A stretch of DNA of 64,000 nucleotides from a virus: positions 32,001 to 96,000 of the IMG/VR virus record IMGVR_UViG_3300015371_000006; one strand, written 5' to 3'. Position numbers and translations under genes: made by a program. Below are positions 2,311 to 40,813 of the stretch, in pieces. The first letter of the stretch is position 1, and each line of letters opens with the position of its first letter. The notes under the pieces are model-generated. The model made no database searches and was not told the origin of the DNA. It was given only the letters and a program-made list of their open reading frames with translations.

Positions 2311-2339
2311 CGACGGCCCCGCCTTGCGCGGGGTCGTCG
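2311..2339. terminator. GC-rich hairpin after ku
   Basis: cgacggccccgc-cttgc-gcggggtcgtcg. Confidence 0.55.
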
Positions 2340-2382
2340 TCGTCTTGTGGTCCCGCCGTCGGGGCGTGCCACCATTCACGCG

Positions 2383-2592: not shown

Positions 2593-2732
2593 GCCAGCGC
2601 GCAGATGGCGAGCGCGAGGCCGAGCAGGAAGGTCAGCAGTCCGAACGGTCCGGCCTGATCGCCCGCGCCGCCCGCGACCATCAGCAGGTAGCCGACGAAG
2701 CCGACGAGGTAGAGGATCGCGAGCGCCGTCAT
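2589..2732 (-). CDS. 47-aa hydrophobic membrane protein
   Basis: Manual translation MTALAILYLVGFVGYLLMVAGGAGDQAGPFGLLTFLLGLALAICALA; abuts the ssb stop. Confidence 0.55.
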   Translation of the reverse strand: MTALAILYLVGFVGYLLMVAGGAGDQAGPFGLLTFLLGLALAICALA

Positions 2733-8285: not shown

Positions 8286-9715
8286 CAGCGCAGCCTCGGC
8301 GCGGCGTTGACGATCAGCGTGCGGTCGGAGGGGCCGGTGGTCGCCACGAACCCCGCCGCCGTCGCCAGCGACAGGATGGTGGCTCCGCTCAGGGCGCTGT
8401 TCCAGACCGCCACCTCGTCCAGCCCTCCGTAGAACGGCGCATTGTTGGGCACGCCCGAGTCGCCGACGGTGAAGTTGCCCCGGTTCCCGGCTGAGCCGTT
8501 GTAGCCGTTGGCGATGCCGACGTTCTGCGTCGTCCCGATTTGCTGGCCGTTGATGTAGAGGCTCGCGGGGCAGGGGTCTACGTCCGTGTAGACGATGGCG
8601 ACGTGGAAGTTGACGCCGAGCGTGATCCCGGTCGAGGCGAACGACCAGCCGACGGCGGTGCCGAAGTTCGCGTCCCAGTTGATGTTGTTGCCCGCCACGT
8701 CGTAGTACAGCTCGGGCGCGTTGACGCCGCTGCCTCCCCAAAAGACGCGGTAGGTGGAGATGTCGTCGAGGCGCGCGATGCCGACGAAGGTGTTCGAACC
8801 TCCGGGCGTGAAGCAGTTGTAGGACGAGGAGCAGCGCGATGACGCCGTGGCGTTCATCGTGATCGCCTGGTCGCCGTCGGAGGGCAGCAGCGAGGTCGCC
8901 TTGCGCGTGACTCCGCTCGCCACGGTCGCGTTGCGAGCGTTGCCGGAGCGGTCCACCATGTCGCCGAAGGGCTCGTCGAGCCGGTAGTAGATCGCCGGGC
9001 TCTGCGCCATGACAGCGGCCGGGTAGGTGGCGGTGAGATCGTCCCAGGCTTCCAGGCCGGTGGTGACCGAAGTGCCCGTGGTCGAGACCTCGTCTGCGGT
9101 GCCGATGGTGTCCTGCACGGCGGTCCCGGTGCTGCTCTGCGTCAGCGGCCAGAAGGCGGCGGGCGTGGACTGCTCCCAGGCGGTGCGCGAGCTGACCAGG
9201 TTCTCCACAGCGGCGTCCGACAGCGCCGACGACCAGTAGCCGAGCGCCTGCATCTGGCCGTCCCAGCCGTTGCCCGCCGAGTCGTTGTCCTGGCCAATCC
9301 AGACCGCACTGGTGGCTCCGATGGCACCCAGGTCGGCCTGCGTCCCGCCGCCGTTCTCATGGACCCAGCTCTGCGTCGTGTAGTCGTAGATGTGGAAGCG
9401 CGGCGTCGAGGTGCCCGTCGCCTTGGTCACGCAGGCCAGGTGCCAGCGACCCGAGACGATGCGAGAGGCAGCGGAGTTGCGCTTGCCCCCGACCGCCTCG
9501 GTGAACAGCGCCACGCTCTCGTCGGCGTCGACCTGGAACGTCCAGGCGTTCGATCCGGCGGGGCCGAAGGCGGCGATCACCTTCGTGTTGGTCACGTCCG
9601 TCGTCTTGATGATGGCGGCGATGGACGAGCCCCCGCCCCACTCAAGGCCCGTGGTTCCGTTGTTGCAGTTGACCTCGGAGTCAGGCCGGACGAACGTGCG
9701 GGCGTAGGTAGCCAC
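8285..9715 (-). CDS. double LamG/concanavalin-like domain virion protein
   Basis: Two LamG-like domains (WHLACVT...; FHVAIVY...LYING...GGLDEVAVWNSALS); first domain paralogous to the N-terminus of 3847..7536. Confidence 0.75.
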   Translation of the reverse strand: MATYARTFVRPDSEVNCNNGTTGLEWGGGSSIAAIIKTTDVTNTKVIAAFGPAGSNAWTFQVDADESVALFTEAVGGKRNSAASRIVSGRWHLACVTKATGTSTPRFHIYDYTTQSWVHENGGGTQADLGAIGATSAVWIGQDNDSAGNGWDGQMQALGYWSSALSDAAVENLVSSRTAWEQSTPAAFWPLTQSSTGTAVQDTIGTADEVSTTGTSVTTGLEAWDDLTATYPAAVMAQSPAIYYRLDEPFGDMVDRSGNARNATVASGVTRKATSLLPSDGDQAITMNATASSRCSSSYNCFTPGGSNTFVGIARLDDISTYRVFWGGSGVNAPELYYDVAGNNINWDANFGTAVGWSFASTGITLGVNFHVAIVYTDVDPCPASLYINGQQIGTTQNVGIANGYNGSAGNRGNFTVGDSGVPNNAPFYGGLDEVAVWNSALSGATILSLATAAGFVATTGPSDRTLIVNAAPRLR

Positions 9716-9729
9716 GGCGGGCTACCTCG

Positions 9730-12822: not shown

Positions 12823-15800
12823 TTATGGCTTCAGCCCGGCCGCCTTGATGACAGCAACCAGGGTATCCGCGTTCTCGACGGCAGGATCGAGGTCAATGCC
12901 CTGGGTTGCGAGTTGCGCAAGGGCGCTCTGCACGGCGGCGGCATTCCAATCGGGGCCGAGCGACTGGGCGGCGTCCGCCAGCCGCTGGTCAGCCTCGGTT
13001 ACCTCGGGCTCGGCGTCCCACTCGTCGGCGCGGTCGACCGCCGCCTTGGCGTCCTTGTATACCTCCGGCGAGTCGTAGCTCTCGCCGGGCGTGGGCTTGA
13101 CCACCAGGTAGGTGCTCTTCGTCTTGACGATCTGCGTCCCGTTCGGCAGCGTCTCGGTGTGGCCGGGCTCGGCGTCGTTCAGCGTGGCGACTCGGTCGCT
13201 CATGTTCGGCGCGGCCGTCGGCGTCGGCTCCTCGGCGGGCGGCTCGCCGTGGTCGGCGAACGCCTTGGCCTCGATCTTCGCCGCCTTCGCGTCGGCCAGC
13301 ACCGAGTCCATGCCCCGCGCCTCCAGCTCGTTGTTGACCTGCTGGGCGGCCCACGGATCTTTGTCCTCGTAGCCGACCATCTGATCGGCGAGGCCCGCCA
13401 GCTTTGCGTCGCTCATCTTCGGGATGTTGCGGAGGTTGCCCTTCGCGGAGTAGGCGGGGCTCACCTTCTGATCGTCGCCCGGCTCGGGCTCGCCGGGGGT
13501 GAAGTCGGGAGTGGTGCCGGGCTTCGGCTGGTCGCCCAGGCCCGCCAGCGGATCTTCGCCGGAGGGCGTCGGCCCGCCCTTGTCCAGCGTCAGGTCGATC
13601 CACCCCACATCGCTCAGCGGCACGCCCTCGGCCTTCAGCGCAGTGGCGATCTCGTCGCGCACGGCGGTGTCGTTGACCTCCGGGTGGTCGGAGGAGATGA
13701 TGTCCATCGTGCCCTTGAGCATCATCTCCCGCTCGCCGGGCTCGGCGTTGACGATGGCCTTGACCATCCGGTCGACCGCCAGGTTGCCCTCGGGGCTGAA
13801 CATGCCCAGGTCCGGCGCGTCGTAGAGGGCCTTATCGGCGGCGTCGGCCTTCGCGCCTGGCTCGATGTAGGAGGCCGGTGGCGCATCCCCTGCCGGGTCG
13901 CCGCTCTTCGCGCCGACCGAGGCCACGCTCTTCTTCAGGAGGTCGTACAGGTCGTCGTCGTTTCCGGCCGTCTGCGCCGCCACGGGTGCCGGGGTGGGCT
14001 TCGGGGCGGGTTCGGGCGCAGAGGCGCTCACAGGCGCTGCCACAGGCGCAGGCGCGCCCGTGGTGAAGCCACGCGACTCCATCTCGGTCTGCACGGCCGC
14101 GTATCCGTCGGGATCGGCGTGCGCGTAGGGGCTCATGTCGGCCCACAGGTTCTTCAGCTTGCCGTCGTTCATCGCCTTGACGTTGCGGATGTTGCCCTTG
14201 GCCGAGCGCACCGGGCTCTCGGGGTTGACGGGCAGCGGGGCGGCCGGGGTGACGCTCCACTCGTCGCTGTAGTCGGGGTGCATGTCGCCGAACGCGCCAG
14301 GCGGCATCCGGTAGTGGAAGATGCGGCGCTTCTCGCCCTGGTACTTCGACGGGGCCGGGTCGGAGGTCAGGATCTCGCCCGTGGAGGGATCGATGGGCTT
14401 GGCGATCACCCAGTTGCCGTTCGCCTTGTGGACGACGTAGCCGTAGCCGTCGTGGATGAACTTCGTCCCGACGGGCACCTCGCCCAGCTCGGTCGAGGAG
14501 GTGTTGGGGGTGAAGCCGTCCGGCACGCTGCCGGGGCTCGCCTGCCCCAGCTTCAAGCCGCCCAGCTCGCTCAGCACCTTCGCGCTCGCCTTCTTGTCGG
14601 AGCCGTTCGCGTACTCATCCCAGGCGGGCAGCAGCACAGCGCTGACGTCCGGCGGTGAGCGGTCGAGTGCGTCGGCGAGCATGACCGCGTTGACGGGGAA
14701 GGTCTGCACCCGGCCGGTGACGCCGCCGGAGCTGATGTTGATTCCGTCGGGCGTGCGCTCCAGCTTCGCGCCGCTGTTGAGCTGCGTCTCGCCGAAGCGA
14801 TCCAGCTCAGCGCCGTTCTTCAGCAGGGTCACCTCGTACTGCGTGCCGACCGCCAGGCCGGGGCTGTACTGGCCGTAGTTCGGGTCGAGCATGTCGGCCG
14901 CTGCGTCGGCGATCTCGTTGTCGAAGCGGTCCTCGTCGCTGTAGAGGCCCCGCGAGGTGCCCTTCGGGTTGCCGTGCACGGTGTCGAGCGCGTCCTCCAG
15001 GCGCTGCAGCAGATCGACGTACTCCTGCGCGCGGTAGTCGTCGTGCTCGGCGACCACCGGGAACCAGTCGCTCTGCACGTCGCCCGCCAGGTCGTCGATG
15101 AACTCGCCGTCGGCGTCCTTGCCCTGCGCCTCCACCTTGGCGATCTCCGTCTCCCACAGCTTCGGGCTCGCCTGGCCATCCTTGCCGAAGATGACGCCCG
15201 TGCCCTTCGCCAGCGGGTGCACGCCCAGGCCCACGCCCTCGTCGACGGCGTCGGGAAGCTTCATCGGGTCCGGCCAGGGGTTCGCCTTCGCCCAGATGCC
15301 CGTGCCCTCGGCCTCCTGGCGCTTCGCCCGCGCAGCGTCGGCCTTGTTCGCGGCGGCCTGCGCCTTCGCCCCGCCCGCGAGGAAGCCGGGGTAGCCGGGG
15401 CTTTGCTGGCCGGGCAGCCGGTAGAGCTGGGCGCGGCCGTCCTTCCACACCTCGACGACGCCCTGCGCCTCGTTGACGTTCACCTCGTCGGCCTTCGGGA
15501 AGTGCTTGGCCTTCAGGTCGGCCTGCAGCTTCTCGCGGCTTTGGGCGGCCTTCGGATCGACCACCTTCATCGCCGGGCTGCGCTGGCCCATCTTGCGGTC
15601 GTCGATCTCGCGGTCGACGGCCTCGTCGCGCGCAGCTTCGTTGGCGAGTTCGTCGTGCAGCTCAGCGACGTCGTCGGGCGTCTTCGCGTCGCCGAAGACG
15701 AAGGTGCCCTCCAGGTCGGTGATGACGTAGCTGTGCTCGTCGTCGCGCGCGATGACGGCGTTCGGTGCGACCGCCACCTCGTCGCCCACGGCCAGCTTCT

Positions 15801-18800
15801 CGGCGGCGTCCAGCGCGTCCTCGCGGCTCAGCGACGAGGAGGGGCTCGCCTGGCCTCCGGCGAAGCGACGCAGGTCGGGGTAGGTGGCGGCGAATTGCGC
15901 GTCGCTCATCGGCCGCCCACGCACGGAGCCCGTGCTGCCGACGGTCTGCGGGTCGCCCTCGTAGATGTACCAGCCGCGTCCGGCTCGCTGGGCGACGACG
16001 CGCCCGCCGGTCAGGCCGGGCTCGGGGCCGGGGCGGTCCCACACGTACTCGTCCAGCTTGCCGCCCCGTTCCTTGCGCACCTCCAGGCGGCCGCTGCCGG
16101 GGCTGCTTCCGGGGCTCCACTGGCCGGTCTTCTGGATCGCCAGCGCAGCTTCGACGGCCGGGCGCGGGACCATCTCCTCGTAGTCGAACTTCAGCATCAC
16201 GGCGTCGCCGTCATCCTCGTCGAGAGCGCTCTGCAGTTGCTCCTTCGTGAAGGCCCAGGCCAGCATCCCCGGCTCGTCGGTGTAGTCGTAGCTCGCCTGG
16301 TCGGTGCGGCCCTGCGGGATGAAGCGCTTGCCTGACTTGTCTGGCGCGGTCGCGCCCAGGCGCGCGTAGATCTCGGGCTTGCCGCCGCTGGCGGTCATGA
16401 ACGCTTCGCTCTCGCGCTTGCCGTCCTTGCCCACCCGGTACGCCTTGCCGTTGGTCGTGATCCCGCCGTAGCCGGAGTTGCCGTAGATCATGAAGCGGTT
16501 GCCGTCGTTGTCGACCGCAGCGGTGCCGTACTTGTCGGCCCAGCTCTGCGAGTCGGCGTTGATCAGCTTGTCCATCGAGCCCCACACGTAGCGGGCCTTG
16601 GAGGTGTCGCCCTCCCAGCCCTTCGTCCAGCCGAGCTTCTTCTTGCCCGTGCCGGGTGACGCCTGGCCGGGGCTGTGCTGACCGCCCATCGAGTCGGTGA
16701 AGCCGGGCGGCGGTTCGACTTCCTGATCGCTGGTCTCGACCTTGTCCAGCGGGACCACGAGCGTGCCGTGGTTGTCGGTCTTGACCCGCAGCTGGCCGAA
16801 CTTGTGGTCGACGACCTCGCCCTGGACGAGATCCTCCTGCCCGCCGATCCTCGCCACCTTCGTGGTGATGTTCGTGCCCACCGGGTAGGCGGCCCTCGCC
16901 GCTGCGTCGCGCTCCTCGCGGCTGAGCTTTCCGCCGGGGCTGGCCTGGCCCAGTGGCCCCGTGGTCACCGGCACCGAACCGCCCGCGTTCTTGAGCTGGC
17001 GCTTCTCGCCCTTGGTCAGCTCGCGCTTCTCGGCGACCCGACTGAGCAGCTGGGCGATCTGCTTGTCCCGCATCTCGGCGTTCGCCGAGGTCCGGCTGCG
17101 GATCTGGCGGATCGAGCGCTGGATCGACTCGTGCTCGGGCGTCCCACCGAGGGTCATCGTGGGGCTGCGCTGACCCAGCGGCGGCATGCTGCTCACGCCA
17201 CCGGACGCCAGCCTGCGGTTGTGAGCGCCCTTCGCCCGCGCGTAGTCGTTGGCCTGCTTGCGGGCGAGGTAGTCCTGGTCGTCGAGGACGGCTTCGGCGG
17301 CTCGGGGCGGGTCGTATCCCTCCCCGACCGAACCGTCGGCGTAGTGGACGTCCACCAGCCCGTCCTCGCGGGCCTTCACCCAGGTCAGGCCATAGCTCTG
17401 CTCCTCGCCGGGCCAGAGGTAGTCGAGGTCGCCGACGATCTCGTCCTTGCTCAGCGCCTCGCCGGGGCTGCGCTGGCCGCCGGGCTTCGCGTCGCGCAGC
17501 TTGACGATCAGGTCGAGATCCTCGGGGTCGATGATCGTCTTGTTGCGCAGTGACTTCGCCAGGTTGCCGAACACCCGGCGGGTGTTCTCCTTGTTGACGC
17601 CGTTCTTCGCCACGTCGGCGGCTAGGTTGCCGTCGGTCATCTTGATCATCGACACCACGTCGTCCATCTCGGCGTCGCTCATGTGCGTGTCGATTCGGCT
17701 GCGCTTCTTCGCCAGCTGCCGCAGCATGTCGTGGTCGCTGAGGCCGGGGCTCGCCTGGTAGCTGTCGGCGCGCATCTTCTCCAGCGCCGCGTCGTAGTCC
17801 AGCTTCGGCAGCTCGGGTGCCTTGCCGGTGGACGGGACGCGCTTGCGGCGTTCCAGGGCTCGCCGCTGCGGCGCGAGGGAGCGCACGGCAGCGTCGGCCT
17901 CCTCGGAGGGCGCGGCCTGCAAGCTCGGCGGGGAGAGCTGCAGCTTGTGGCCCGCGACCATCACCGACTTGCCGTCGGGGGTCACCTTGCCGCGCGAGCC
18001 GCCCAGGCTCACGCTGTCGCCGGGACGCAGCACGCGGCCGCGCCCCTCGGGGGCGAAGGTGCCGTCGGGCAGGCGGCGGATGCGGGCGATCCGGGCGGCC
18101 AGCTCGGAGGTCTTGCGCGCGGCTCCGCGCAGGCTCGCCTCCAGCAGCTCGCAGGCGGCTTCCTGCACGTCGATGTTCGGGTAGCGGCGCTTGACGGCGG
18201 CGCGGACCTTCTTCTTCTCGTCGGCCGATCCGTGCTGGCTTACGCGCGCGAGCGCGTTGCGCGCGTGGGCCTCGTCGTGGATCGGGTAGCGGCGGTCCGG
18301 CAGCGCGAAGTCGGAGTCGGGACGCTTCTTCCGAGCGGCGGCCGTCAGCGTGCCCTCCTCGACCTCCTTCTTGTTCGCGGCCGCCTTGGCCTTGAACTTC
18401 TCGTCGCGGGCCTTGCTCAGGGAGTGGCCGCACTTCTTGCAGTCGGCGTTGCGGGCGCTCTGCTCGGTGCCGCACTCGGGACACTTGACGCTCTGCTCGG
18501 TTGTCTCGTCGCCCTTGCCCTCCTTCTCGGCCTTCGTGTCAGCCTCGGCCAGGCTCTGGTCGCGCTGGGGGTTGCGGGCGTTGCGCTTCTTGCGGCGCTT
18601 GTTGCGCTCGGCATCGGTCAGCTTCGGCTCGGGGGTGGAGGTATCAGCCGCAGGCTTGTTTCCCAGCAGGCGCTTGCGCAGCTTGCGCTTGTCCTGCGGG
18701 GTGAGCGCGCCTGGCGTGACTTGAGCCGCCTCGCCGCCTGAAAGCAGCGCCGTAGCAGTCTGGTGACCCACGATCCCGTCGACCATTAGCCCGTTTTCGC

Positions 18801-20346
18801 GCTGGTATTGCCTGACCGCCTGTTGGAAGCCCTGGCCGCCGCCGCCCACCTTGTCGGCGATGGCCGATCCCAGGCCACCGGAGGCCGAGCGGATGAACTG
18901 GCCGCCGCCGGTCCGGCCCTTCGCGGCGCGCGGGTGCTTCTTTTCGAAGTCGCCTCCGGCCGACTGGCCGTCGCGGCCCTTCGGCTTCTTGCCGTAGTTC
19001 ATCCCCCAGCGCGTGGTCCCGAAGGGCGTCGTGATCGACTTCGTGCGGAACTCCTCCACGTCGGCGATGCTCTCCTCCAGCTTGTCGCCGTTCTTGCCGT
19101 GGCGCTTGAGCAGCGCCCACGTCTCCGGCCCGATGGCCCCGTCGGCCTTCAGCCCGTAGCGGCGCTGGATGCGCTTGACGCCCTTCTCGGTCTCCGGCCC
19201 GAAGCGCCCGTCCGGCCCGGCGTCGCCGACGTAGGTGCCCATCGCACCCATCGCCTCCTGGGCGGCCTTGACGGAGGGGTCGCCCTCGCCCTGTCCGACG
19301 CCCCGGCCCTTCGCCAGCCAGACGTTCGCGCTGGGCGTATCCGTGGGCGTATCCGTGGGCGTATCGTCGGCGTCCGCGTCGCCCTCGGGCTCGCTCGGGT
19401 TCGCCTCCTCATCAGGATTTCCCCCATTGGGGGAACCGGCGCGCAGCTTCTCCACGTCCTCGGGCGAGGTGCCGCGCATGGCGATCCGGGTCTTGTCGCC
19501 CAGCACGCCGTCGGGCTTCAGCTCGTGGTCGCCCTGAAAGCTCTCGACCGCGCCCTTGGTCTCCTCGCCGTACTCCCCGTCGACGCCGACGTCGTAGCCC
19601 AGCGTCTTCAGCCTGGCCTGGGCCTGGCCTACGAGTTCCCCGGACCCTCCCTGCTTGAGGGTCAGCCCGTCGCTATGTGCCTCGGTAGGGCGGCCTCGTG
19701 GGCTACGCGCTTTGACCTTGGACATGCGCCGCTCTGCATCAGCGACCGGGTCGTCCTTGGCCTCGCGTACCTCCCCGCCCAATTCCTTGGCGAGAGCACG
19801 AAGCTCGGTTGCCTCGGTCAGCAGCGCTCTCGCTGCCTGCGCCTGAGCGCGGGGTTCGGCCGGTGGGCCACCCATCTGCACGATCCGCACGGATTCGCTG
19901 AGCGGAGTTTCGATCAGCTCGGGGACGGCCTTGACCAGTCCCGCCTTGCCCGTTGTCCTCGGTTCGCTGAGCGGTCCCAGCGCGCCCTCGATGACGACCA
20001 GCCGCGCTTGCACCTCGCGCAGCACCCGCGCCGCCTCCTCGTCGCTGAGGATCAGGTCGGCGACCTCGGCCTCGGTCAGCTTCTTGCGCGAGTGCTTCAG
20101 TCGCCCCGGATCGAACTTGTCGAGCAGCACGGCGCAGCGGCGGTTCGCGTGATCCTTGCTGAGCCCGTGCTTGACCTGGTCGCGCACGCAGGACGTGAAC
20201 GGGTGCGGTTTCGCCAGGTAGTGCTTCGCCAGCGGCGCGATCTTCTTCGTGTCGCCAGGGGTTACGTCCGCCGTGCCGGGCTTGCTGAAGGTCTCCACCT
20301 CTTCGAGGTCACGCCTCTCGGGCGGCTGTTGCTGCGCCTCGGCCAC
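12823..20346 (-). CDS. giant modular (polyvalent) protein: 3 peptidoglycan-binding domains, Zn ribbon, DUF6582-like domain, 13 (G)QxSP motifs delimiting small modules
   Basis: PG_binding_1 signatures (VDGEYGEETKGAV..FQ...DGVLG; DGRFGPETEKGV..IQ...DGAIG; QYQRENGLMVDGIVG); CPECG..CKKCG; DSDFALPDRRYPIHDEAHARNALAR. Start placed at GTG 20346, 6 nt after TACGAT. Confidence 0.8.
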   Translation of the reverse strand: MAEAQQQPPERRDLEEVETFSKPGTADVTPGDTKKIAPLAKHYLAKPHPFTSCVRDQVKHGLSKDHANRRCAVLLDKFDPGRLKHSRKKLTEAEVADLILSDEEAARVLREVQARLVVIEGALGPLSEPRTTGKAGLVKAVPELIETPLSESVRIVQMGGPPAEPRAQAQAARALLTEATELRALAKELGGEVREAKDDPVADAERRMSKVKARSPRGRPTEAHSDGLTLKQGGSGELVGQAQARLKTLGYDVGVDGEYGEETKGAVESFQGDHELKPDGVLGDKTRIAMRGTSPEDVEKLRAGSPNGGNPDEEANPSEPEGDADADDTPTDTPTDTPSANVWLAKGRGVGQGEGDPSVKAAQEAMGAMGTYVGDAGPDGRFGPETEKGVKRIQRRYGLKADGAIGPETWALLKRHGKNGDKLEESIADVEEFRTKSITTPFGTTRWGMNYGKKPKGRDGQSAGGDFEKKHPRAAKGRTGGGQFIRSASGGLGSAIADKVGGGGQGFQQAVRQYQRENGLMVDGIVGHQTATALLSGGEAAQVTPGALTPQDKRKLRKRLLGNKPAADTSTPEPKLTDAERNKRRKKRNARNPQRDQSLAEADTKAEKEGKGDETTEQSVKCPECGTEQSARNADCKKCGHSLSKARDEKFKAKAAANKKEVEEGTLTAAARKKRPDSDFALPDRRYPIHDEAHARNALARVSQHGSADEKKKVRAAVKRRYPNIDVQEAACELLEASLRGAARKTSELAARIARIRRLPDGTFAPEGRGRVLRPGDSVSLGGSRGKVTPDGKSVMVAGHKLQLSPPSLQAAPSEEADAAVRSLAPQRRALERRKRVPSTGKAPELPKLDYDAALEKMRADSYQASPGLSDHDMLRQLAKKRSRIDTHMSDAEMDDVVSMIKMTDGNLAADVAKNGVNKENTRRVFGNLAKSLRNKTIIDPEDLDLIVKLRDAKPGGQRSPGEALSKDEIVGDLDYLWPGEEQSYGLTWVKAREDGLVDVHYADGSVGEGYDPPRAAEAVLDDQDYLARKQANDYARAKGAHNRRLASGGVSSMPPLGQRSPTMTLGGTPEHESIQRSIRQIRSRTSANAEMRDKQIAQLLSRVAEKRELTKGEKRQLKNAGGSVPVTTGPLGQASPGGKLSREERDAAARAAYPVGTNITTKVARIGGQEDLVQGEVVDHKFGQLRVKTDNHGTLVVPLDKVETSDQEVEPPPGFTDSMGGQHSPGQASPGTGKKKLGWTKGWEGDTSKARYVWGSMDKLINADSQSWADKYGTAAVDNDGNRFMIYGNSGYGGITTNGKAYRVGKDGKRESEAFMTASGGKPEIYARLGATAPDKSGKRFIPQGRTDQASYDYTDEPGMLAWAFTKEQLQSALDEDDGDAVMLKFDYEEMVPRPAVEAALAIQKTGQWSPGSSPGSGRLEVRKERGGKLDEYVWDRPGPEPGLTGGRVVAQRAGRGWYIYEGDPQTVGSTGSVRGRPMSDAQFAATYPDLRRFAGGQASPSSSLSREDALDAAEKLAVGDEVAVAPNAVIARDDEHSYVITDLEGTFVFGDAKTPDDVAELHDELANEAARDEAVDREIDDRKMGQRSPAMKVVDPKAAQSREKLQADLKAKHFPKADEVNVNEAQGVVEVWKDGRAQLYRLPGQQSPGYPGFLAGGAKAQAAANKADAARAKRQEAEGTGIWAKANPWPDPMKLPDAVDEGVGLGVHPLAKGTGVIFGKDGQASPKLWETEIAKVEAQGKDADGEFIDDLAGDVQSDWFPVVAEHDDYRAQEYVDLLQRLEDALDTVHGNPKGTSRGLYSDEDRFDNEIADAAADMLDPNYGQYSPGLAVGTQYEVTLLKNGAELDRFGETQLNSGAKLERTPDGINISSGGVTGRVQTFPVNAVMLADALDRSPPDVSAVLLPAWDEYANGSDKKASAKVLSELGGLKLGQASPGSVPDGFTPNTSSTELGEVPVGTKFIHDGYGYVVHKANGNWVIAKPIDPSTGEILTSDPAPSKYQGEKRRIFHYRMPPGAFGDMHPDYSDEWSVTPAAPLPVNPESPVRSAKGNIRNVKAMNDGKLKNLWADMSPYAHADPDGYAAVQTEMESRGFTTGAPAPVAAPVSASAPEPAPKPTPAPVAAQTAGNDDDLYDLLKKSVASVGAKSGDPAGDAPPASYIEPGAKADAADKALYDAPDLGMFSPEGNLAVDRMVKAIVNAEPGEREMMLKGTMDIISSDHPEVNDTAVRDEIATALKAEGVPLSDVGWIDLTLDKGGPTPSGEDPLAGLGDQPKPGTTPDFTPGEPEPGDDQKVSPAYSAKGNLRNIPKMSDAKLAGLADQMVGYEDKDPWAAQQVNNELEARGMDSVLADAKAAKIEAKAFADHGEPPAEEPTPTAAPNMSDRVATLNDAEPGHTETLPNGTQIVKTKSTYLVVKPTPGESYDSPEVYKDAKAAVDRADEWDAEPEVTEADQRLADAAQSLGPDWNAAAVQSALAQLATQGIDLDPAVENADTLVAVIKAAGLKP

Positions 20347-20374
20347 GTCGTCATCGTAACCGCGCCCTGGGCGG

Positions 20375-20584
20375 CTACCCCGGTTGGACTTCGATCCGTA
20401 GCGGCGTGTTGCCCGGTGCGGTGACGTGGATGATCCGGCGGCGGTGCTCGGTGCGGACCTCGCTGATCTTGATATCGGGGTCGGCGACCAGCGCCTGCTC
20501 GACGCCACTGAAGCCCCGGTTCAGCCGCTCGCGCGTGTCAGGCGGCGACGAGGAGGTCTTCGTCTCGGGCGTCGATGAGTCCAT
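20375..20584 (-). CDS. hypothetical protein
   Basis: Short ORF in the operon. Confidence 0.45.
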   Translation of the reverse strand: MDSSTPETKTSSSPPDTRERLNRGFSGVEQALVADPDIKISEVRTEHRRRIIHVTAPGNTPLRIEVQPG

Positions 20585-33541: not shown

Positions 33542-36500
33542 CTAACGGGGCTTGACGACGGCGTCGACCACGGTCGCCCCGTCGATGAGCTTGCTGCCGG
33601 TGATGCGAATCGACGTGCGCCGGGGCAGCACCACGCGGCCGGGCGTCGGATCGGTGACGGTGTCGAGCGTCGAGGGCATCAGCGCGTGCGCTCCGGTCGG
33701 GACCGTGAGCCGCAGGGTGACCACGCCGGGCGTCGGCGCGTACTGCGTCTCGGCGTTGAGGTAGCTCTTCTCGGTCATCCACTTCCCGGCCAGCTCGCCT
33801 GCGTTGTCGGCGTTGATCTTGCTGTCGGCGGGCAGCGGGACGTAGGCGTAGAAGTCCTCGTCGACTCGGGTCACCCTGTCGCCCAGCAGGGCGTCCAGCT
33901 GCGCCACGGTGCCCTGCGTCTCGGCGTCGGCGGCCGCGCGCTTGGCCCCGGAGCGCAGGTGGGCGTCCACCACGTCGTGGCCCTGGCCCAGGTAGTGCTC
34001 CATCGCTGCGTCCTCCTCGGGGTAGGTCTCCAGCGATGCGTCGCGCGCGCTGAATTCGTCGAGCACCTCCTCGCCGCTCAGCGGCTCGGGGATCTCCTCC
34101 TCGCCTCGGCTGTAGCGCCCCAACCAGGCGACTCGGGCCTTGAGGTTCTCGCGGACGCGCTCGCGCATCTCCTCATCGTCGAACGGGGCCGCGTCCACCA
34201 GCGCGTCGATGCGCTCGGGGGTCAGACGCAGCTCGGCGTCCTTGGCGGCGGCCCGCATCCCCTCCTCGGTGATCGCCATCCGCGTCCACGCCTGCCCGCC
34301 AGGCTTGTTCATCGTCCACAGCTCGGTCGGCACCGGCCCGAACGGCTTCGGCCCGCCCATCGCCCGGTACTCCAGGGTGCCGCCCTGGTCGAGTCGGATC
34401 GGGGTGTCGCCGTTCCACAGCACGTTGTCCTGCGCCAGGCCGACCACGTCCCAGTTGCCCAGCAGCGCGTCGGCGACGAAGCCGTCGGCCAGCGTTTCAT
34501 CGGCGTGTTGCCACTGGCGCTCCTCGCCGTCCACGAGCGGGTAGGTCAGCGCGCGGGTCTTGCCGAACTTCGGCACGTTCACCTCGGTGTAGCCCGCGTT
34601 CGGGACGGTGATCCCCAGCTCGCGGTAGATCGAGTTCGCCAGCAGCTCGGTTGCCACGCGGTCGCGGTTGCCCTTGTACGTCTTCACCAGCCAGCGGCGG
34701 CCCTCGGCGTCCTCGGCCATCCGCGCCCCGTTCGACCCTCCTGCGGGCTTGACGTCCTTGAGCTTCGTGGCGGTGTAGTCGGGGATGCCCTGCACCGGCT
34801 CGGGCGGGGCTTCCATCTCGGAGCGCTCGACCTCTTCGGTGCGCTCGGGCTTGCCGCCGTCCCAGCTCGCCTGCATCTTCGCCAGGAACGCCTTCATCCC
34901 CGGCAGCTCAGGTGGGCTGGCCTGGCCTACTCCTCCGGCTTCTCCTCCGGCTTCTCCTCCGGCTCCGGGTCCGACTCGTAGCGCAGCGTCTCCCCCTCCA
35001 GGTACTCCGCTGCGTCCGGCGGGAGATCCGGGGCTGGCGGCGGCTGCTCCTTCGGGTCCATCGAGGCCCATCCTACCCTGCGCCAGGAAGCCGTCCATCT
35101 TCTCGGCGTCGAGAATCTTCAGCTCGCCGCCCACATCCTTGTCGGCGATCAGCTTCGCGGGCTCGCCGCGCGGCACGTCGGTGTCCCACACCCGCAGCCG
35201 CAGCCAGGGGAGTTCGTCGTCGTACTCGGTGAAGCGCTGGGGCACGCTGCGGTAGGCGTTGTCGACGATGTGGTCGGGCACGGTGCGGCCGCTGCGCTCG
35301 GCGCGCTCGGCCACGCGGACCTTGCCCTTTTCGTGGGGGAGGTGGGCGACGTCGACCTCCACGTCGTAGCCGTCGGCGTGCGCCTGCTCCAGCTTCTCGC
35401 GGAAGCGCCCCGCGCCGGAGTTGCCGACGCCGTCGATCAGCACGTCGAGGCCCCGGTTGAAGGCTCGCGCGCGCAGCGTCCGGGCGATGATCGAGGACTC
35501 CTCATGCACGCCCGCGCCGCTGTAGGGGTCGCGCGCTTCGATCATCGCCTGGTACTCGGGCAGCTTCTCCTTGATCGCGTCGGGGTTGACCTCGACCATG
35601 CCGGTGGCCTCGGCGCTCAGCATCGAGGACTTGCCCGAGCCCGGTCCGCCTGCGGTGAACGCCGCGCGCGGCTTGCGGCCCGAGGGTGGTTCGTGGCCTT
35701 CCAAGAAGCTGTTGATGATCTCCTCGTGCAGCGCCCGGCGCTCGTCGGCGTAGACCCGGCCGGTCGGGGTCATGCGCGACCACTTCGCCTCGGTGTCGAC
35801 GGCCTCGCCCAGCACCTCATTGGCCGTCGGCCCCTTCTCCACCTGCAGCCGATCCTCGGGGCGCTCGGCGGGGCTGGCCTGGCCCATCATCACCGAGCTG
35901 AGCGCATCCCAGGCGTTGGCTGCCAGCTGCTCCTCTGAGGCCGCGTCGGCGTCACGGATCGCCTCCAGGGCGCGCACCTCCTCTTCGTCTCGCAGCGTCG
36001 TGATCGCCGGTTCGACCTCCTCGCGGCTCAGCCCGTCAACCGAACCCACGTCGCGCTTGACCGCGTAGGTGCGCGTGCCGTCGCGGTCGCGGGTGACGCT
36101 TACCTCGCTGCCGTCGCTCAGGGTGATCGTCGATGCGTCGGGCTGACCGGGGTAGAAGTCCAGCTCGTCGAGGTTCCTGCGGTCGCGGTCGCTCAGCGGC
36201 CTGCGGCCGAAGCCGGTCGGGCGGGGGCGGTCCAGTGCGCCCCGCCAGGCGGCGAGCGCAGGCATCGGCCCCGCTGCTCCGAGGGTCTGCACGCGCTGGG
36301 CATAGGGATTCCACGCCACATGGCGCGACAGGTGCAGGCCGGGGCTGGCCTGCCCGCCTTGCGCCTCCAGGGATTCGCGGTCGAGCAGCAGCTCGTTCTC
36401 GCCCGCCAGCTTGCCCAGCCACAGCGCCTTGGTCCCGGCGGGCACCGTGACCTCCTGAACGTCGCCGAATCGCTCGGCATCAGCCTTTCGCGTGCTGGTG

Positions 36501-39500
36501 CTCACGAACGGCCCGCGCAGCTTGCCGTCGTCGGCCCCGCCTCGGTAGACCGTGACCGCCTCGGGGAGCGCCCTCATCGCCCTGCGCAGCATCTTGACCT
36601 GCGGCCCCAGCTTGTACTCGCGGTCGAGCGAGGGGTCGTAGAGGATCTCGTCGGGATCGTCCGACTCTTGGAACGGCGTGCTGTCAACGATGTACAGCTC
36701 AGCCGCGTTCTGTTGGCGCGGTCCCAGCTCGGGCGCATTCGCGTCGAGCATCTCCTCAGCCGCCTTACCCTTCAGTCCGGGGCTGGCCTGGCCAGTCGCC
36801 TTACTGATTGCGGCCTTCACCAGCGAGTCGTCGAGCGCCCGGCGCTCCTCCGGCGTGCGGTCGGGGTCGTCGTCGGCGTGCTGATCCATCGCGTCGGCGA
36901 TCAGCGCCTCCAGGTCGGCGGTGTCCTCGCCGGGCTCGACCCAGCCGTTGAGCATCGACTTCGTCAGCTCGTCCTGCACGGCCTGGCGCTGCTCAGGGGT
37001 CAGCTGGTCGAGGCCGGGGCTGGCCTGGCCTGCCATCGCGCGCAGGCGCGGGTCGTCTGACTGGGACAGGTACTCCTGCTTGCGGGCCTGCAGCGAGTCG
37101 GCGATCTCGCTGCCCACCGGCTCGCCGTCGCGGGTGTAGCGGGCCTGGTGGCCGTAGTACGCCTGCGACCAGTTGTAGCCGTCGGTAAGCCGGTAGCCGT
37201 GGTCGATGACCTTGCCCTTGTTCTGCGCCTCCAGCTCGCGCATCAGCTGGGTGGCGATGCCCCGGCGCTGGAACTCGGGGATGACCTCGATCTTGTCGAT
37301 GCCGATGTCGGCGTTGGCCTCGCGCGCTTTCTTGCCGATGGCGGGCCGGTAGCGGCTGTAGGTCAGCTTGCCCACCTCCCTGCCGTCTACCTCGGCCACC
37401 AGGCCGTCGAAGTATTCGGTGTCGCCTCGCTTGCGCGGCTTGATCTCGGCGGGGCTCAGCTGGCCCGACTTGACCGCGTCGTCTACCTGGGGGTTCCAGG
37501 CGTCCAGGGTTGCGGGCGGACTCGCCTGCCCCAGCGCGAGCTTCGTGTCCGGCATCAGGCCCTTGCCTGCGGGCTGGGCGACACCGGAGCGCACGGCGAT
37601 GCCGTAGCTCTCGGCGTTGCTCATCCGGTTCGTGGTCGCGTAGCGCTTCCGTGAGCCGTCGGGGCGTTCGATCAGCACGCTGTCGCCGCGCTTGCCTCGG
37701 GTGATCGTCGAGCCATCGGCGGCCTGCAGGCTGTCGCCTCGCTGCAGCGCTCGGACCTTGCGGATCAGCGCCCGGCGCGGGTCGGAGTAGTTGTGCGGGT
37801 CGAAGCTGCCGGGCTCGATGTCGAGCGCCTCGGCGTTCGGCTCGGCGATCCCCATCTCCTTCATCGTCCGCTTGACGAAGACGCGGTCCTTCTCCTTCTC
37901 GGCTTCGGGCAGGTCGGCGTAGGGCTTCAGCAGCTCCGGCTGGTCGGCCTTCGCCCAGCTCTGGTTGCGGTCGATCCAGGCGTCGTGCACCTCGGAGGCC
38001 AGCCGCTCCATGTCGAGCGCACCCTCCTCATCGCGCATCCGGGTGATCGCGTCGTAGGCCGACGCCGCGCCGTCGCGGTTCTCGGCTTGGAACTTCTCGG
38101 GCAGCTCGTCGTAGGTCATGTCGGCGATGTCGATGGTCCCGCCCCCATAGGGCTTGGGCCGGGGCTCGTAGTTGCGGTCCTTGCGCCACTGTTCGTGGGC
38201 CTGTGCCGCGACCCTCTCTACGACCTTGTCTCGCTGCATGGCAGCGCCTGTGAGCGGTTGTTCGGGCGCGCCCTCTGCACCCTGCCCCTCCGGGGCGTCG
38301 CCGCCTCTGGCGCGCTTACGGCTCTCCGCTCCAGGGCGGGCTCGGGACACGTCGAGGACGCTCGACTCGCGCAGCAGCACCATCTCGCCGTCCTCGGTGA
38401 GCGCCTCGGCCTTCCAGCCCAGCGCGTCGTCGTCCTCGACCTTGCGCAGCTCGGCCACGGTGATGTCGCCGTTGTTCTGCTTGATCCGCACCACATCGCC
38501 CTCCGCGACCGGGCCGGTGATGTTGTTGCCCTTCAGGTTGCGCCGGGGCGGATCGGCCAGGAACTCCACGTCGTCGGGGTCGGGGTAGCGGGTGACGGTG
38601 TCCACGATCTGGCCGTTGTGGTCGCGCAGCTTGACCTCGACCTCGGCGTACCAGCGCCCGTCCTCGCCCACCATCGCGTCGGTGACCACGCCCTCCCAGG
38701 GCTCCTTGCGCCCCGTCACGCGCACGCGCGCGCCCGCGCGGATGCGCATGCGGTGGTCGGTGTAGTTGGGCTGGCGCAGCACCTCCGCTCCGGCGGCCCC
38801 CGGCCCGGCGAAGTGCTCGACCGTCCTCGCCATCAGGTCGCGCGCTCGCGCCTCGCCCTTCTCGGGGGTGACGCCCTGCGCGCCTGCCAGCAGCCCGCCG
38901 AGGATCTCGAAACGCTTCTCGGGGTCGGCGCTGAAGGCCAGGTTGTGCAGCAGCTCGCGGCGGTTCTCCAGCGGGACGTGGGCTTCGTCGAGCAGGAGCC
39001 CGAGCGCTGCGCGCTGGGGCAGGTAGGTGCCCTGGGCTCGGATGTCGTCGGGCTTGCGGCCCAGCCAGCGCAGGACGTCGTGCTGTCCGTTGCGCTTCAG
39101 CAACTCGACCGCCCACTCGTGAGCCATCTCCTCGGTCAGCGCCTCGTCGAGGCTGAAGTGCTCCGGCTGGGCGAAGGTCTCGGGGTTGATCGGGTTGACG
39201 CCGTGGGAGGCCTCGTGCATCGCCGTGCGGTAGGCGTTGTAGACGCCCGCTGCGGTGTCGTCGTCGAGCCGCCGCTTCTCCACGCGGGCGGCGTGGGCGG
39301 CCTGCAGGTGCACCTGGGCGGCCCGGCCGACTTGCACCTCGCCGTCCCAGCTGCGAAAGCCGCCCGTGTCCTCGTCGGCTTCGTTGATGCGGATCGACTT
39401 CAGCACCACCTGGCGGCCGTGCGTGTCGCCGATTTGCTGTGCAAGCCCGGCCACTCCGGCGGCAAGACCGGAGAAGTCCTCTGGTGCGCCAGCCTTCTGG

Positions 39501-40705
39501 GCCGCCATATTGCCTGCAAAGGGCACAGGAACTGGAGAAGACGTCGGGCCCCCGGCTCCATCCGGCACATCCGGCACATCCGGCGTCCCAGCAGGCATCC
39601 CGCCGGGTGCCGCCTGGCCCCCGACCTGCGTGGTGACCCTTGCTGGGATCGGGTCCGACCCGCGCTGCGCGAGCTTCGGCGCGTCCGTGCCGTGCAGGAA
39701 CCGGAGCACGTCGTTGAGGCTGATCCTCGGCGCAAAACCCCCGCGTCTTGGGCGGAAACGGCCGCCCCACACCGTGCCCTTGGCGAACCGCTCGTCCCAG
39801 GCGACCTCCTCCATGTCGAGCACGAGGTCTGCGGGTGGGACATCGGTGCCCTCGGGCTGGGACATACCGCCGGACATATCCCCAGTCAGAGACACGAGAA
39901 AGTCACCATTTGCAGGGGTTTCGCCGTTCGAGCTGAGGGACATCTCCAGGGACATCTCGGTGACACGTTCGGCCAGTAGGGCCTCTTGCAGCAGGCCGTA
40001 TCGCTCAGCGATCTGCTGGGCGCGCCGGTCGGCCGCCTCGGTGTCGGGAGCCTCGGCTCCCATCAGCCCCATGTCGTATGCCTCGTCGTGCGTGAGCAGC
40101 TCGCAGCGGCAGCCCGTGTGCGTCGGCGGGTTGATCCGGTCGAGCACGCTCCAGGGCCACCAGCCGACCGTCGCCATCGCCAGGCAGTCCGGGGTGTGCT
40201 CCTTGACCGCTTCGCTGAGGTGCCAGAACGCGCCCTCGGGGCTCAGCCTGCGGACCATGCCCCTGCGCGCGGTCGCCTGCACGCGAGCGGCCGCCGCCTC
40301 GTGGTGTGCCTCGGTGAACCGCCGCTCGCGCTCCAGCACCCGCTTGACCGCCGCCTCGGGTTCGTCGCGCTGCAGGGCCGCCGGGATGTCGCGGCGCATC
40401 CGCTCCTCCATGCGCCGGTAGAACTCGACGTCGCGCTCCTGCTCGACCCGCGCGGCCTCGGCCAGCTCGGCATCGCTCACGTCGGCGCGTGCGAACTCCG
40501 GTCGGATCGCCTTGACGATCCAGTCCGCGCCCTTGCTGCGCCGCCTCAGCGCCGCGACGGCCGCCCCGATGGCGGCCCCGGCCTGTCCCGAGGCCACCTC
40601 GCCCCCAGCAGCGTCGTCGTCGCCGGAGGCTGCGATGACGCCCCCCGCTGCGGCCGCCGCCAGGATCGCCTCGGTGTTGTCGTCCTGCTTCGCGCGCGTC
40701 GGCAT
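33542..40705 (-). CDS. MuF (minor head protein)-fused polyvalent effector protein: zincin, SH3-like, RyR, GNAT, ART, zeta toxin, HipA/PI-kinase-like, degenerate ART
   Basis: PPTHTGCRC (MuF); HEASH...DEALTE; AHEQW/VHDAW...PYADLPEAEKEKDR; VIPEFQRRGIATQL; VYRG/FVSTS/GENE; GGPGSGKS; GGSN..LVK..E...DALLGNWD...N...LDQGG. Confidence 0.85.
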   Translation of the reverse strand: MPTRAKQDDNTEAILAAAAAGGVIAASGDDDAAGGEVASGQAGAAIGAAVAALRRRSKGADWIVKAIRPEFARADVSDAELAEAARVEQERDVEFYRRMEERMRRDIPAALQRDEPEAAVKRVLERERRFTEAHHEAAAARVQATARRGMVRRLSPEGAFWHLSEAVKEHTPDCLAMATVGWWPWSVLDRINPPTHTGCRCELLTHDEAYDMGLMGAEAPDTEAADRRAQQIAERYGLLQEALLAERVTEMSLEMSLSSNGETPANGDFLVSLTGDMSGGMSQPEGTDVPPADLVLDMEEVAWDERFAKGTVWGGRFRPRRGGFAPRISLNDVLRFLHGTDAPKLAQRGSDPIPARVTTQVGGQAAPGGMPAGTPDVPDVPDGAGGPTSSPVPVPFAGNMAAQKAGAPEDFSGLAAGVAGLAQQIGDTHGRQVVLKSIRINEADEDTGGFRSWDGEVQVGRAAQVHLQAAHAARVEKRRLDDDTAAGVYNAYRTAMHEASHGVNPINPETFAQPEHFSLDEALTEEMAHEWAVELLKRNGQHDVLRWLGRKPDDIRAQGTYLPQRAALGLLLDEAHVPLENRRELLHNLAFSADPEKRFEILGGLLAGAQGVTPEKGEARARDLMARTVEHFAGPGAAGAEVLRQPNYTDHRMRIRAGARVRVTGRKEPWEGVVTDAMVGEDGRWYAEVEVKLRDHNGQIVDTVTRYPDPDDVEFLADPPRRNLKGNNITGPVAEGDVVRIKQNNGDITVAELRKVEDDDALGWKAEALTEDGEMVLLRESSVLDVSRARPGAESRKRARGGDAPEGQGAEGAPEQPLTGAAMQRDKVVERVAAQAHEQWRKDRNYEPRPKPYGGGTIDIADMTYDELPEKFQAENRDGAASAYDAITRMRDEEGALDMERLASEVHDAWIDRNQSWAKADQPELLKPYADLPEAEKEKDRVFVKRTMKEMGIAEPNAEALDIEPGSFDPHNYSDPRRALIRKVRALQRGDSLQAADGSTITRGKRGDSVLIERPDGSRKRYATTNRMSNAESYGIAVRSGVAQPAGKGLMPDTKLALGQASPPATLDAWNPQVDDAVKSGQLSPAEIKPRKRGDTEYFDGLVAEVDGREVGKLTYSRYRPAIGKKAREANADIGIDKIEVIPEFQRRGIATQLMRELEAQNKGKVIDHGYRLTDGYNWSQAYYGHQARYTRDGEPVGSEIADSLQARKQEYLSQSDDPRLRAMAGQASPGLDQLTPEQRQAVQDELTKSMLNGWVEPGEDTADLEALIADAMDQHADDDPDRTPEERRALDDSLVKAAISKATGQASPGLKGKAAEEMLDANAPELGPRQQNAAELYIVDSTPFQESDDPDEILYDPSLDREYKLGPQVKMLRRAMRALPEAVTVYRGGADDGKLRGPFVSTSTRKADAERFGDVQEVTVPAGTKALWLGKLAGENELLLDRESLEAQGGQASPGLHLSRHVAWNPYAQRVQTLGAAGPMPALAAWRGALDRPRPTGFGRRPLSDRDRRNLDELDFYPGQPDASTITLSDGSEVSVTRDRDGTRTYAVKRDVGSVDGLSREEVEPAITTLRDEEEVRALEAIRDADAASEEQLAANAWDALSSVMMGQASPAERPEDRLQVEKGPTANEVLGEAVDTEAKWSRMTPTGRVYADERRALHEEIINSFLEGHEPPSGRKPRAAFTAGGPGSGKSSMLSAEATGMVEVNPDAIKEKLPEYQAMIEARDPYSGAGVHEESSIIARTLRARAFNRGLDVLIDGVGNSGAGRFREKLEQAHADGYDVEVDVAHLPHEKGKVRVAERAERSGRTVPDHIVDNAYRSVPQRFTEYDDELPWLRLRVWDTDVPRGEPAKLIADKDVGGELKILDAEKMDGFLAQGRMGLDGPEGAAAASPGSPAGRSGVPGGGDAALRVGPGAGGEAGGEAGGVGQASPPELPGMKAFLAKMQASWDGGKPERTEEVERSEMEAPPEPVQGIPDYTATKLKDVKPAGGSNGARMAEDAEGRRWLVKTYKGNRDRVATELLANSIYRELGITVPNAGYTEVNVPKFGKTRALTYPLVDGEERQWQHADETLADGFVADALLGNWDVVGLAQDNVLWNGDTPIRLDQGGTLEYRAMGGPKPFGPVPTELWTMNKPGGQAWTRMAITEEGMRAAAKDAELRLTPERIDALVDAAPFDDEEMRERVRENLKARVAWLGRYSRGEEEIPEPLSGEEVLDEFSARDASLETYPEEDAAMEHYLGQGHDVVDAHLRSGAKRAAADAETQGTVAQLDALLGDRVTRVDEDFYAYVPLPADSKINADNAGELAGKWMTEKSYLNAETQYAPTPGVVTLRLTVPTGAHALMPSTLDTVTDPTPGRVVLPRRTSIRITGSKLIDGATVVDAVVKPR
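34927..35061 (-). CDS. nested out-of-frame 44-aa acidic peptide (candidate zeta-domain antitoxin)
   Basis: MDPKEQPPPAPDLPPDAAEYLEGETLRYESDPEPEEKPEEKPEE*; 41/44 codons end in G/C, versus 18/45 in the host frame; TAGGAT 8 nt upstream. Confidence 0.65.
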   Translation of the reverse strand: MDPKEQPPPAPDLPPDAAEYLEGETLRYESDPEPEEKPEEKPEE

Positions 40706-40813
40706 GCCCAACGAGTCTAAGCCCGAAAGCGGCGAGCGGCCCAGGTCGCCCTGGACCGCCCTCCCAGCGCCGCTCGATTGCCTTTCTTCGCCGCCGGGTG
40801 CCGCTCTCCTGCC

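Follow-up and report, generated by a model that had tools for sequence, protein, structure and literature searches.

What is the role of a short peptide that recurs, always in the same frame, through the middle of a giant phage protein? The question is raised by gene A, which lies at 12823..20346 on the minus strand of the window, that is, of the whole 64,000-nucleotide stretch analysed here, corresponding to bases 32001-96000 of the 111,596-bp IMG/VR record IMGVR_UViG_3300015371_000006 (completeness estimate 89%). This source phage record is termed G000, and proteins A, B, and C are numbered in it and in a relative, G001. The G+C content of the record is about 69%, and it encodes a gpA-type terminase, a portal, and a DNA methylase, as well as a Mu-like/Phage_capsid_4 capsid protein, a cement protein, and a tail sheath. 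The source is a large, myovirus-like, uncultured phage, and its host is likely actinobacterial, to judge from the G+C content and from the nearest partial matches, which are Streptomyces phages and the Actinomycetia phage DSL-LC01. The product of gene A is very probably a conserved carrier protein that holds an array of exchangeable cassettes. A fuller reading, about which our judgement is evenly poised, adds that the peptide between the cassettes is a recombination seam and probable protease site, from which virion-delivered small proteins would be released.

Gene A (database gene call P0002) most likely starts at GTG 20346, which gives a protein of 2507 amino acids (aa). The frame stays open upstream to 20508, and residues are numbered here in this 2561-aa open frame (12823-20508, minus strand), the stop codon being 12823-12825. 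A chance open frame in high-GC DNA was rejected, given a G+C content of 0.92 at third codon positions (GC3) and the existence of orthologues (G001_A, P0033, L174, and L175). Both ends of the protein are conserved. The N-terminal "head" (17761..20346, minus strand) is 30-57% identical to G001_A, P0033, and L174/L175 over aa 135-859, and the C-terminal "tail" (aa 1988-2561, from the last linker on; 12826..14547, minus strand) is 27-43% identical to G001_A, P0033, P0011, and L174/L175.

Between these ends, a motif scan of the translation delimits a variable region (14533..17760, minus strand) in which 13 [G/Y]-Q-x-S-P linkers bound 11 modules. GQxSP itself occurs 12 times, at aa 1011, 1112, 1187, 1276, 1281, 1462, 1552, 1641, 1700, 1778, 1879, and 1988, and is preceded by a single Y-Q-A-S-P at aa 917. 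In window coordinates, the linkers start (high coordinate) at 17760, 17478, 17175, 16950, 16683, 16668, 16125, 15855, 15588, 15411, 15177, 14874, and 14547, so that the first occupies 17746-17760 and the last 14533-14547. An earlier note on this DNA had given the spacings between successive motifs as 94, 101, 75, 89, 5, 181, 90, 89, 59, 78, 101, and 109 aa, and the translation reproduces them exactly. Such a number of motifs is far from what composition would give: in 20,000 shuffles of the gene A protein, GQxSP was found 0.043 times on average and never more than twice. As a hexapeptide, the linker may be written G-[Q/M]-A/x-S-P-[G/A], where M is the form found in relatives and where the position x varies (A, R, H, W, Q, Y, or L).

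The linkers split aa 917-1987 into eleven modules of 59-181 aa, all on the minus strand. The modules are as dissimilar as the earlier note had proposed, since no similarity between modules of the same protein was found by BLASTP (E<=1e-4); this absence of self-similarity also led to the rejection of a tandem duplication of one module. Their mixture of very acidic and basic members is borne out too, the isoelectric point (pI) spanning 4.1 (net charges of -16 and -18) to 11.2 (+7). Searches of the array modules in Pfam, PHROGs, and NCBIfam gave no match, and the anti-defence or nucleic-acid-mimic role that the earlier note proposed from their size and charge finds no support there. Four of them are simply orphans: m1 (aa 917-1010, 94 aa, pI 8.2; 17479..17760), m2 (aa 1011-1111, 101 aa, pI 4.6; 17176..17478), m6 (aa 1462-1551, 90 aa, pI 9.7; 15856..16125), and m7 (aa 1552-1640, 89 aa, pI 4.1, net charge -16; 15589..15855). 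Module m3 (aa 1112-1186, 75 aa, pI 11.2; 16951..17175) is helical, and m4 (aa 1187-1275, 89 aa; 16684..16950) is modelled as a helix and a five-stranded SH3-like small barrel. The largest module, m5 (aa 1281-1461, 181 aa; 16126..16668), is preceded by a doubled linker, GQHSP-GQASP (16654-16683). Then come m8 (aa 1641-1699, 59 aa; 15412..15588) and m9 (aa 1700-1777, 78 aa; 15178..15411), the latter with one weak match to a 43-aa fragment, P0029. Finally, m10 (aa 1778-1878, 101 aa, pI 4.1, net charge -18; 14875..15177) has a C-terminal part in common with P0011, and m11 (aa 1879-1987, 109 aa; 14548..14874) is common to P0011 and P0033 and, weakly, to G001_A. Single-sequence AlphaFold2 (AF2) modelling of the whole array was uninformative (predicted local distance difference test, pLDDT, 41.5), and m8 was the only stretch of it to be folded confidently in this way, as a helix with three strands (pLDDT 75-85).

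That these modules are units in their own right is best seen in the relatives. The contig G001 (80.9 kb), which was reached via its terminase (56% identical), encodes orthologues of A (a 3794-aa open frame), B (2661 aa), and C, and its linker reads G-M-A-S-P, which is repeated 24 times in A, 11 times in B, and 4 times in C. When the A proteins of G000 and G001 are compared by BLASTP, aa 148-859 and 1942-2561 align, whereas the linker-bounded middles (917-1988 in G000 and 873-3128 in G001) show no similarity to each other. The same holds for B, where the N- and C-terminal ends are kept and the region from the first to the last linker is replaced. Moreover, cassettes recur between the carriers of G001, G001_B 1654-1765 matching G001_C 136-264, and the repeat element found in the conserved tail has a copy at G001_A 2443-2502. 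In G001_A (L017:810-12191, minus strand), two more M-A-S-P-bounded modules follow the conserved C-terminal end (aa 3572-3794), and the N-terminus of G001_C has linker-bounded modules that the C protein of G000 lacks. A carrier can therefore bear cassettes at either of its ends.

A third full-length relative, P0033 (2852 aa), contains x-Q-A-S-P about 19 times, and within its array only m3 is shared (52% identity), lying between two linkers but among other neighbours; m11, at the edge of the tail, is also common to both. P0011 shares m10, m11, and the tail with A, has different modules upstream, and mixes M- and Q-type linkers. Two orthologues that are more distant, L174 and L175, come from contigs of about 130 kb, are only 1476 and 1507 aa long, and have no array; in L174, a single Q-Y-S-P is found precisely at the junction to the C-terminal domain. 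The earlier note had proposed that an invariant order of modules across relatives would speak against the independence of the modules. No such invariance was seen, for G001_A, P0033, and P0011 keep their ends and have almost wholly different modules, and this replacement in three relatives implies that the modules are independent, exchangeable units. These alignments show that, from one related phage to the next, it is single cassettes that are exchanged in the array, between ends that stay fixed. The description of the region as a library of mini-modules thus holds as regards modularity and turnover, but the modules are not separate genes: they form the middle of the single gene A. One metagenome contig, Ga0307376_10015551 (L171:1-45), from a P0033-like phage, begins exactly at a linker (GGA CAG GCG AGC CCC) before the C-terminal domain; this is an anecdote, compatible with a fork in the assembly at the seam, where the repeat or a mixture of cassettes may have interrupted the contig.

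Cultured phages yielded no Megablast match to gene A, and tblastn matches to phages were confined to the peptidoglycan (PG)-binding and DUF6582 parts. A word-based search with aa 900-2100 found only the gene A protein itself, and viral contigs held no related loci for the array, for P0011, or for P0006. Run exhaustively with phmmer against 1.8 billion representatives, the array yielded 30 matches.

At least two modules, m4 and the C-terminal half of m5, have small stand-alone homologues and also occur in other polyvalent proteins. For m4, there are many complete stand-alone homologues of 59-109 aa, all Met-initiated and ending just past the domain, and m4 is also a domain of P0006, P0007, and P0025. 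The earlier note had likened this module to SH3/KOW domains. An AF2 model built with the family alignment (pLDDT 81.7) confidently gives one helix and a five-stranded small barrel, and Foldseek ranks SH3-like, Tudor, chromo-barrel, and Hfq folds highest, but with no row better than E=0.045 and hence without significance; the ESM Atlas gave weak SH3-like leads. The label "SH3-like" is therefore valid only at the level of fold class. The linker forms the low-confidence, unstructured N-terminal end of the model. The C-terminal 70 aa of m5 (16126-16332) are a mini-domain that is mobile and carries two motifs, GRTDxxSxDYTDxP and LKFDYEExVP; stand-alone forms of it (63-161 aa) exist and copies are found in P0004, P0008, P0010, and a 3289-aa protein of phage DSL-LC01; a search of the ESM Atlas with this half of m5 gave no match. 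Module m3 also forms the C-terminal end of a 190-aa protein, P0030. The small stand-alone homologues are frequently on short contigs. The proposal that the array grew by the capture of small genes between motifs therefore finds support in the stand-alone forms of m4 and of the C-terminal half of m5, but the data do not fix the direction, capture or release.

The linker is not confined to A. A six-frame scan of the whole record limits the in-frame GQxSP family linker to three proteins, namely A (13 copies), B (7), and the tape measure (1). Gene B (33542..40813, minus strand), a 2423-aa open frame adjoining the carrier and bearing the same linker, encodes a MuF-type polyvalent protein, with the PPTHTGCRC signature of MuF, matches to the Pfam families Zeta_toxin, GNAT, ADPrib_exo_Tox, and RyR, and Zeta-type and PI3/4-kinase-like kinases together with ADP-ribosyltransferases (ARTs). 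Its seven G-Q-x-S-P linkers, at aa 1095, 1117, 1262, 1341, 1487, 1644, and 1963, define a variable cassette region (34913..37531, minus strand) and bracket the Pfam domains GNAT (1136-1197), ART (1436-1481), and Zeta (1708-1867). The tape measure (1391 aa; genome 17002-21174, minus strand; L003:5002-9174) lies outside the window and has one exact GQASPG, at aa 500-505, where 0.003 would be expected in all other open reading frames (ORFs). MuF proteins and tape measures are virion proteins, and a linker common to A, the MuF protein B, and the tape measure points to a signal at the protein level. The tape measure also has glycine-zipper-like hydrophobic stretches, a metallopeptidase-like HSDHVHIG, and a C-terminal lytic-transglycosylase-like segment (AKGESG...GLWAI).

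Is it the peptide or the DNA that is conserved? In G000, the Ser of the linker is encoded by AGC in 18 of 20 copies (background 0.46, P=6e-5) and the Pro by CCC in 16 of 20 (P=1e-3). For G001, TCG is the Ser codon of 27 of 39 copies (background 0.15, P=3e-14) and GCA the Ala codon of 22 of 30 (P=7e-6). Indeed, the 11-mer ATGGCATCGCC has 17 copies in G001, each of them in A or B and on the strand that encodes these proteins, with none for the reversed control, and a scan of viral contigs with the 14-mer GGCATGGCATCGCC gave, among the matches listed and besides G001 itself, only single chance matches. Conservation stops within about six codons. The same x-A-S-P peptide is thus spelled CAG GCS AGC CCC in one phage and ATG GCA TCG CC in the other; the two families of Ser codons cannot be interconverted by one synonymous step, and yet Ser-Pro is invariant. 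The GQASPG of the tape measure has the exact peptide but codons unlike those of the array linkers (TCG for Ser), which implies that the peptide is kept independently of the DNA. We read this as two layers: selection on the peptide would act across lineages, and homogenisation or templated spread of a DNA word would act within each genome. A DNA word homogenised within a genome is the product expected of an in-frame recombination seam.

Some other origins for such a repeat were rejected. Internal translation starts at the linkers do not fit, G001 having ATG where G000 has CAG, and they are further ruled out by the lack of a conserved ribosome-binding sequence ahead of the motif. A 2A-like ribosome-skipping peptide was discarded on the grounds that there is no NPGP and that the system is bacterial. 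A transglutaminase or cross-link site at the Gln of the linker is at odds with the Met of the relative, and a shufflon-type inversion system with repeats that are all direct and in one frame.

How might such an array work? In the mechanism proposed here, the carrier A would keep small-domain cassettes in frame between a head with PG-binding, zinc ribbon, and DUF6582-like domains and a conserved tail. At the DNA level, the linker would be a short in-frame seam, such that recombination between any two copies could add, delete, or swap cassettes with the frame intact. At the protein level, it would be a recognition site, most likely for a phage protease, which might be either the zincin-like HExxH domain in the MuF protein B or an unrecognised head protease. 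Cleavage would cut A, B, and the tape measure into separate pieces, and the freed small proteins, delivered by the virion, might then act in the newly infected cell in host takeover or counter-defence; the delivery of the modules into the host and their role in counter-defence are speculation from context. The idea that the hexapeptide is a protease site, in which we believe about as much as we doubt it, derives from the position of the linker strictly between domains, its presence in the MuF protein and the tape measure, its conservation at the peptide level, and the prediction by Iyer et al. (2017; PMC5512222) of zincin-like peptidases as the enzymes that process such polyvalent proteins. 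The alternation of Q and M would suit a P1 pocket. The zincin-like candidate is HEASH, aa 533-537 of B (39203..39217, minus strand), which is the only peptidase-like signature found in the record and which has an equivalent, HEMTH, at the same position in G001_B; gene A itself contains no HExxH.

Several observations weigh against this mechanism. The HEASH region of B has no sequence match in Pfam or the PDB, so that its assignment as a zincin depends on HExxH alone. The prohead protease families S78, Mu-like I, ClpP, and S49 (PF04586, PF10123, PF00574, and PF01343) are absent from the 89%-complete record (the T4-type family, PF03420, was not searched), and the scaffold-like ORF upstream of the cement and capsid genes (genome 29225-30514) has no match. 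Nor does [QM]xSP occur in the capsid protein, the cement protein, the scaffold-like ORF, the portal, or the 1670-aa protein. The variability of position x means that the scissile bond cannot be deduced from the alignment of the linkers. The presence of A in the virion is suggested solely by its peptidoglycan-binding domains and the shared motif, and its cleavage, packaging, and injection are predicted steps in the life of an uncultured phage. As for the DNA layer, the GC3 of the modules is native-like throughout (0.91-0.98), without sign of recent foreign capture, and the homogeneity of the codons could have causes other than recombination.

A simple alternative is that the protein is never cut and that A acts at full length as a structural protein associated with the virion or the cell wall, with the modules as spacers or binding units and the linker as a flexible hinge. 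No protease has been identified in the record, the capsid and scaffold-like proteins lack the motif, and the preservation of both the N- and C-terminal ends suggests that the two are needed in one molecule; moreover, some polyvalent proteins, such as the N4 virion RNA polymerase (vRNAP), are packaged unprocessed (PMC5512222). A plain hinge, however, requires neither an invariant Q/M nor an invariant S and P, and it does not explain why the same hexapeptide is found at the borders of enzymes in the MuF protein and at one site in the tape measure, or why Ser-Pro has been held across phages via different families of codons. Since a full replacement of modules between relatives also disfavours a structural role that depends on them, we regard the uncut protein as unlikely, although it is the rival to be taken most seriously. 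The invariance of Ser-Pro would also be explained if the linker were a site of modification, the Ser being phosphorylated or ADP-ribosylated by the kinase or ART domains of the MuF protein, or a site of docking to the capsid, portal, or chaperone for loading. The Zeta-type and PI3/4-kinase-like kinases and the ARTs of the neighbouring B would be to hand, and the G-K-A-D-P-G-T of P0006 has an Asp in the place of the Ser, possibly as a mimic of phospho-Ser. But there is no obvious use for a docking motif repeated 13-24 times per chain, and a strictly inter-domain position is the classical place of a cleavage site, so that modification or docking seems improbable.

Equally improbable is a seam that operates at the DNA level only, in which the repeat would be a recombination joint for the exchange of cassettes and the peptide incidental. 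Such a joint would account for silent positions that are homogenised within each genome, for a turnover of cassettes that falls exactly between repeats, and for the one contig that breaks at a repeat. It would not account for the encoding of x-A-S-P by unconnected Ser codon families in G000 and G001 or for the exact peptide with other codons in the tape measure; moreover, 11-14 nucleotides are very short for homologous recombination. A bolder version of the favoured reading, namely that of a seam that is also a protease site, would make the linker a dual-coded "junction code", one hexapeptide and a fixed DNA word serving both as an in-frame seam for moving small effector cassettes among virion carriers and as a signal for cleavage after delivery. 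We hold this version to be doubtful. The code would drift among lineages, as GQASP, GMASP, and possibly GKADPGT, G[DE]KGGG, and KHGDHDQSxHG, and the arrays would amount to addressable libraries, assembled by nature, of mini-proteins that are injected, among which new counter-defence factors would likely be numerous.

Other repeated junctions are indeed found in other polyvalent proteins: GKADPGT in P0006 (4 copies), KHGDHDQSxHG in P0010, and G[DE]KGGG in L141. P0006 has the N-terminal domain of A and an SH3-like module, its modules being separated by G-K-A-D-P-G-T, and P0010 brackets the GRTD...LKFDYEE mini-domain with KHGDHDQS(S/D)HG(D/N)RGGG. In L141:5987-13171 (plus strand; IMGVR_UViG_3300047409_000574), a 2395-aa polyvalent ORF with PG-binding domains and a DUF6582-like domain contains about 7-8 copies of G-[D/E]-K-G-G-G, mostly encoded by GAC AAG GGC GGC GGC, which bound modules of about 60 aa. 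No repeated junction was found in the giant protein of DSL-LC01.

Comparison with known systems is instructive. Polyvalent proteins, as described by Iyer, Burroughs, Anand, de Souza, and Aravind (2017; PMC5512222), are giant, multi-domain proteins of mobile elements, encoded beside or fused with MuF, whose architectures vary rapidly and whose delivery with the DNA is predicted. Gene B, with its MuF, HExxH, RyR, GNAT, ART, and Zeta domains, is a textbook case. A resembles them in being encoded on a phage record, in its many disparate domains, and in an architecture that differs among G000_A, G001_A, P0033, and P0011, but its array has no effector enzyme recognised by Pfam, PHROGs, or NCBIfam, only small orphan domains. 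The same paper does not describe a repeated junction peptide between domains (the word "linker" occurs 0 times), the fixation of silent sites at a junction, or the wholesale replacement of cassettes between conserved ends (PMC5512222).

Among systems known from experiment, the closest analogues are that of T4 gp21 and that of SPN3US, whose gp245 processes head and ejection proteins at A-X-E (PMC10052503). T4, phiKZ, and SPN3US share with the proposed system a short consensus, a single phage protease, many ejected proteins from inside the virion, and the possibility of several sites per protein, cleavage in A being a prediction. They differ in that their motif is also present in the capsid, portal, and scaffold proteins, whereas in G000 the motif is missing from the corresponding proteins and no protease family of this sort was detected, and in that their cleavage mainly removes N-terminal propeptides, unlike what is proposed here. 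The substrates of T4 gp21 include the internal proteins and Alt, with a capsid-targeting sequence, and the internal proteins of T4 are separate genes, not one in-frame string.

Polymorphic toxins offer another parallel. In CdiA (VENN) and Rhs (PxxxxDPxGL), as here, a short conserved motif parts a constant carrier from an exchangeable cargo, and the junction studied here is conserved at the DNA level as well. The junction motif of Rhs coincides with the point of cleavage. These toxins have a single C-terminal toxin and an immunity gene, whereas here there are 11-24 internal cassettes and the C-terminal end is conserved; no immunity-type gene was identified for the cassettes. Phage-encoded MuF polymorphic toxins were reported by Jamet et al. 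(2017; PMC5576092) in a paper that mentions no cleavage, linker, or recombination motif. Viral polyproteins also have a repeated short consensus strictly at the borders of domains, and the picornavirus 3C protease cuts after Gln. In the present case, a 3C-like protease was not found, the cargo varies and is accessory, not the core machinery of replication, and the virus is a double-stranded DNA tailed phage.

Polyvalent proteins and their predicted processing were already known, and what remained open was where they are cut and by what means their sets of domains change so fast. This locus offers testable sites, since a single hexapeptide is present 13 + 7 + 1 times, a series for comparison, with four relatives that bear an array and two that lack one, and a codon-level signature that separates selection on a peptide from homogenisation of DNA. 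If the predicted cleavage is true, the linker would allow giant phage proteins to be parsed automatically into functional units, and dozens of orphan modules of 60-180 aa would become candidate injected effectors.

The remaining features of gene A lie in its conserved ends (all on the minus strand). Within the head are a KPHPFTSC domain (20188-20211), three PG_binding_1 domains (about 18733-19662; Pfam 2.2e-37), a KHPR...F motif (18895-18939), a zinc ribbon (18430-18483), a DUF6582-like domain (18187-18354; matches to phrog_16160 and DUF6582 are recorded for the head), and RLPDGTFAP (18049-18075). The tail contains two copies of an SP-x-[RY]-SAKGN element (14191-14217 and 13435-13461). The DUF6582-like YPIHDEAHARNA domain is another mobile mini-domain, found both as free proteins of 73-97 aa and inside large proteins on about 30 viral contigs (L140-L170).

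A second short motif, approximately (F/W)(D/E)xxxHPRxxxG(x)F, occurs in A (window 18895-18939, minus strand), in protein C (aa ~110-127), in L141, and in P0007, P0025, and P0030. It recurs at the N-terminus of small proteins, has four copies in the giant ORF of L141, and may be another loading or processing signal. Protein C itself (1670 aa; window 28068-33077, minus strand) has no family match and, in this phage, no linker; its identity to G001_C is 36% across some 900 aa, and it is apparently built of many short beta-rich units with a recurring G-x-x-Y/F-x-V. Finally, two further genes on the minus strand, one for a 1231-aa protein (window 3847-7542) whose sole match is to a spurious-looking repeat, TX13_rpt, and one, downstream of gene A, for a 478-aa Laminin_G_3 protein (window 8285-9721), possibly encode fibre or receptor-binding proteins.

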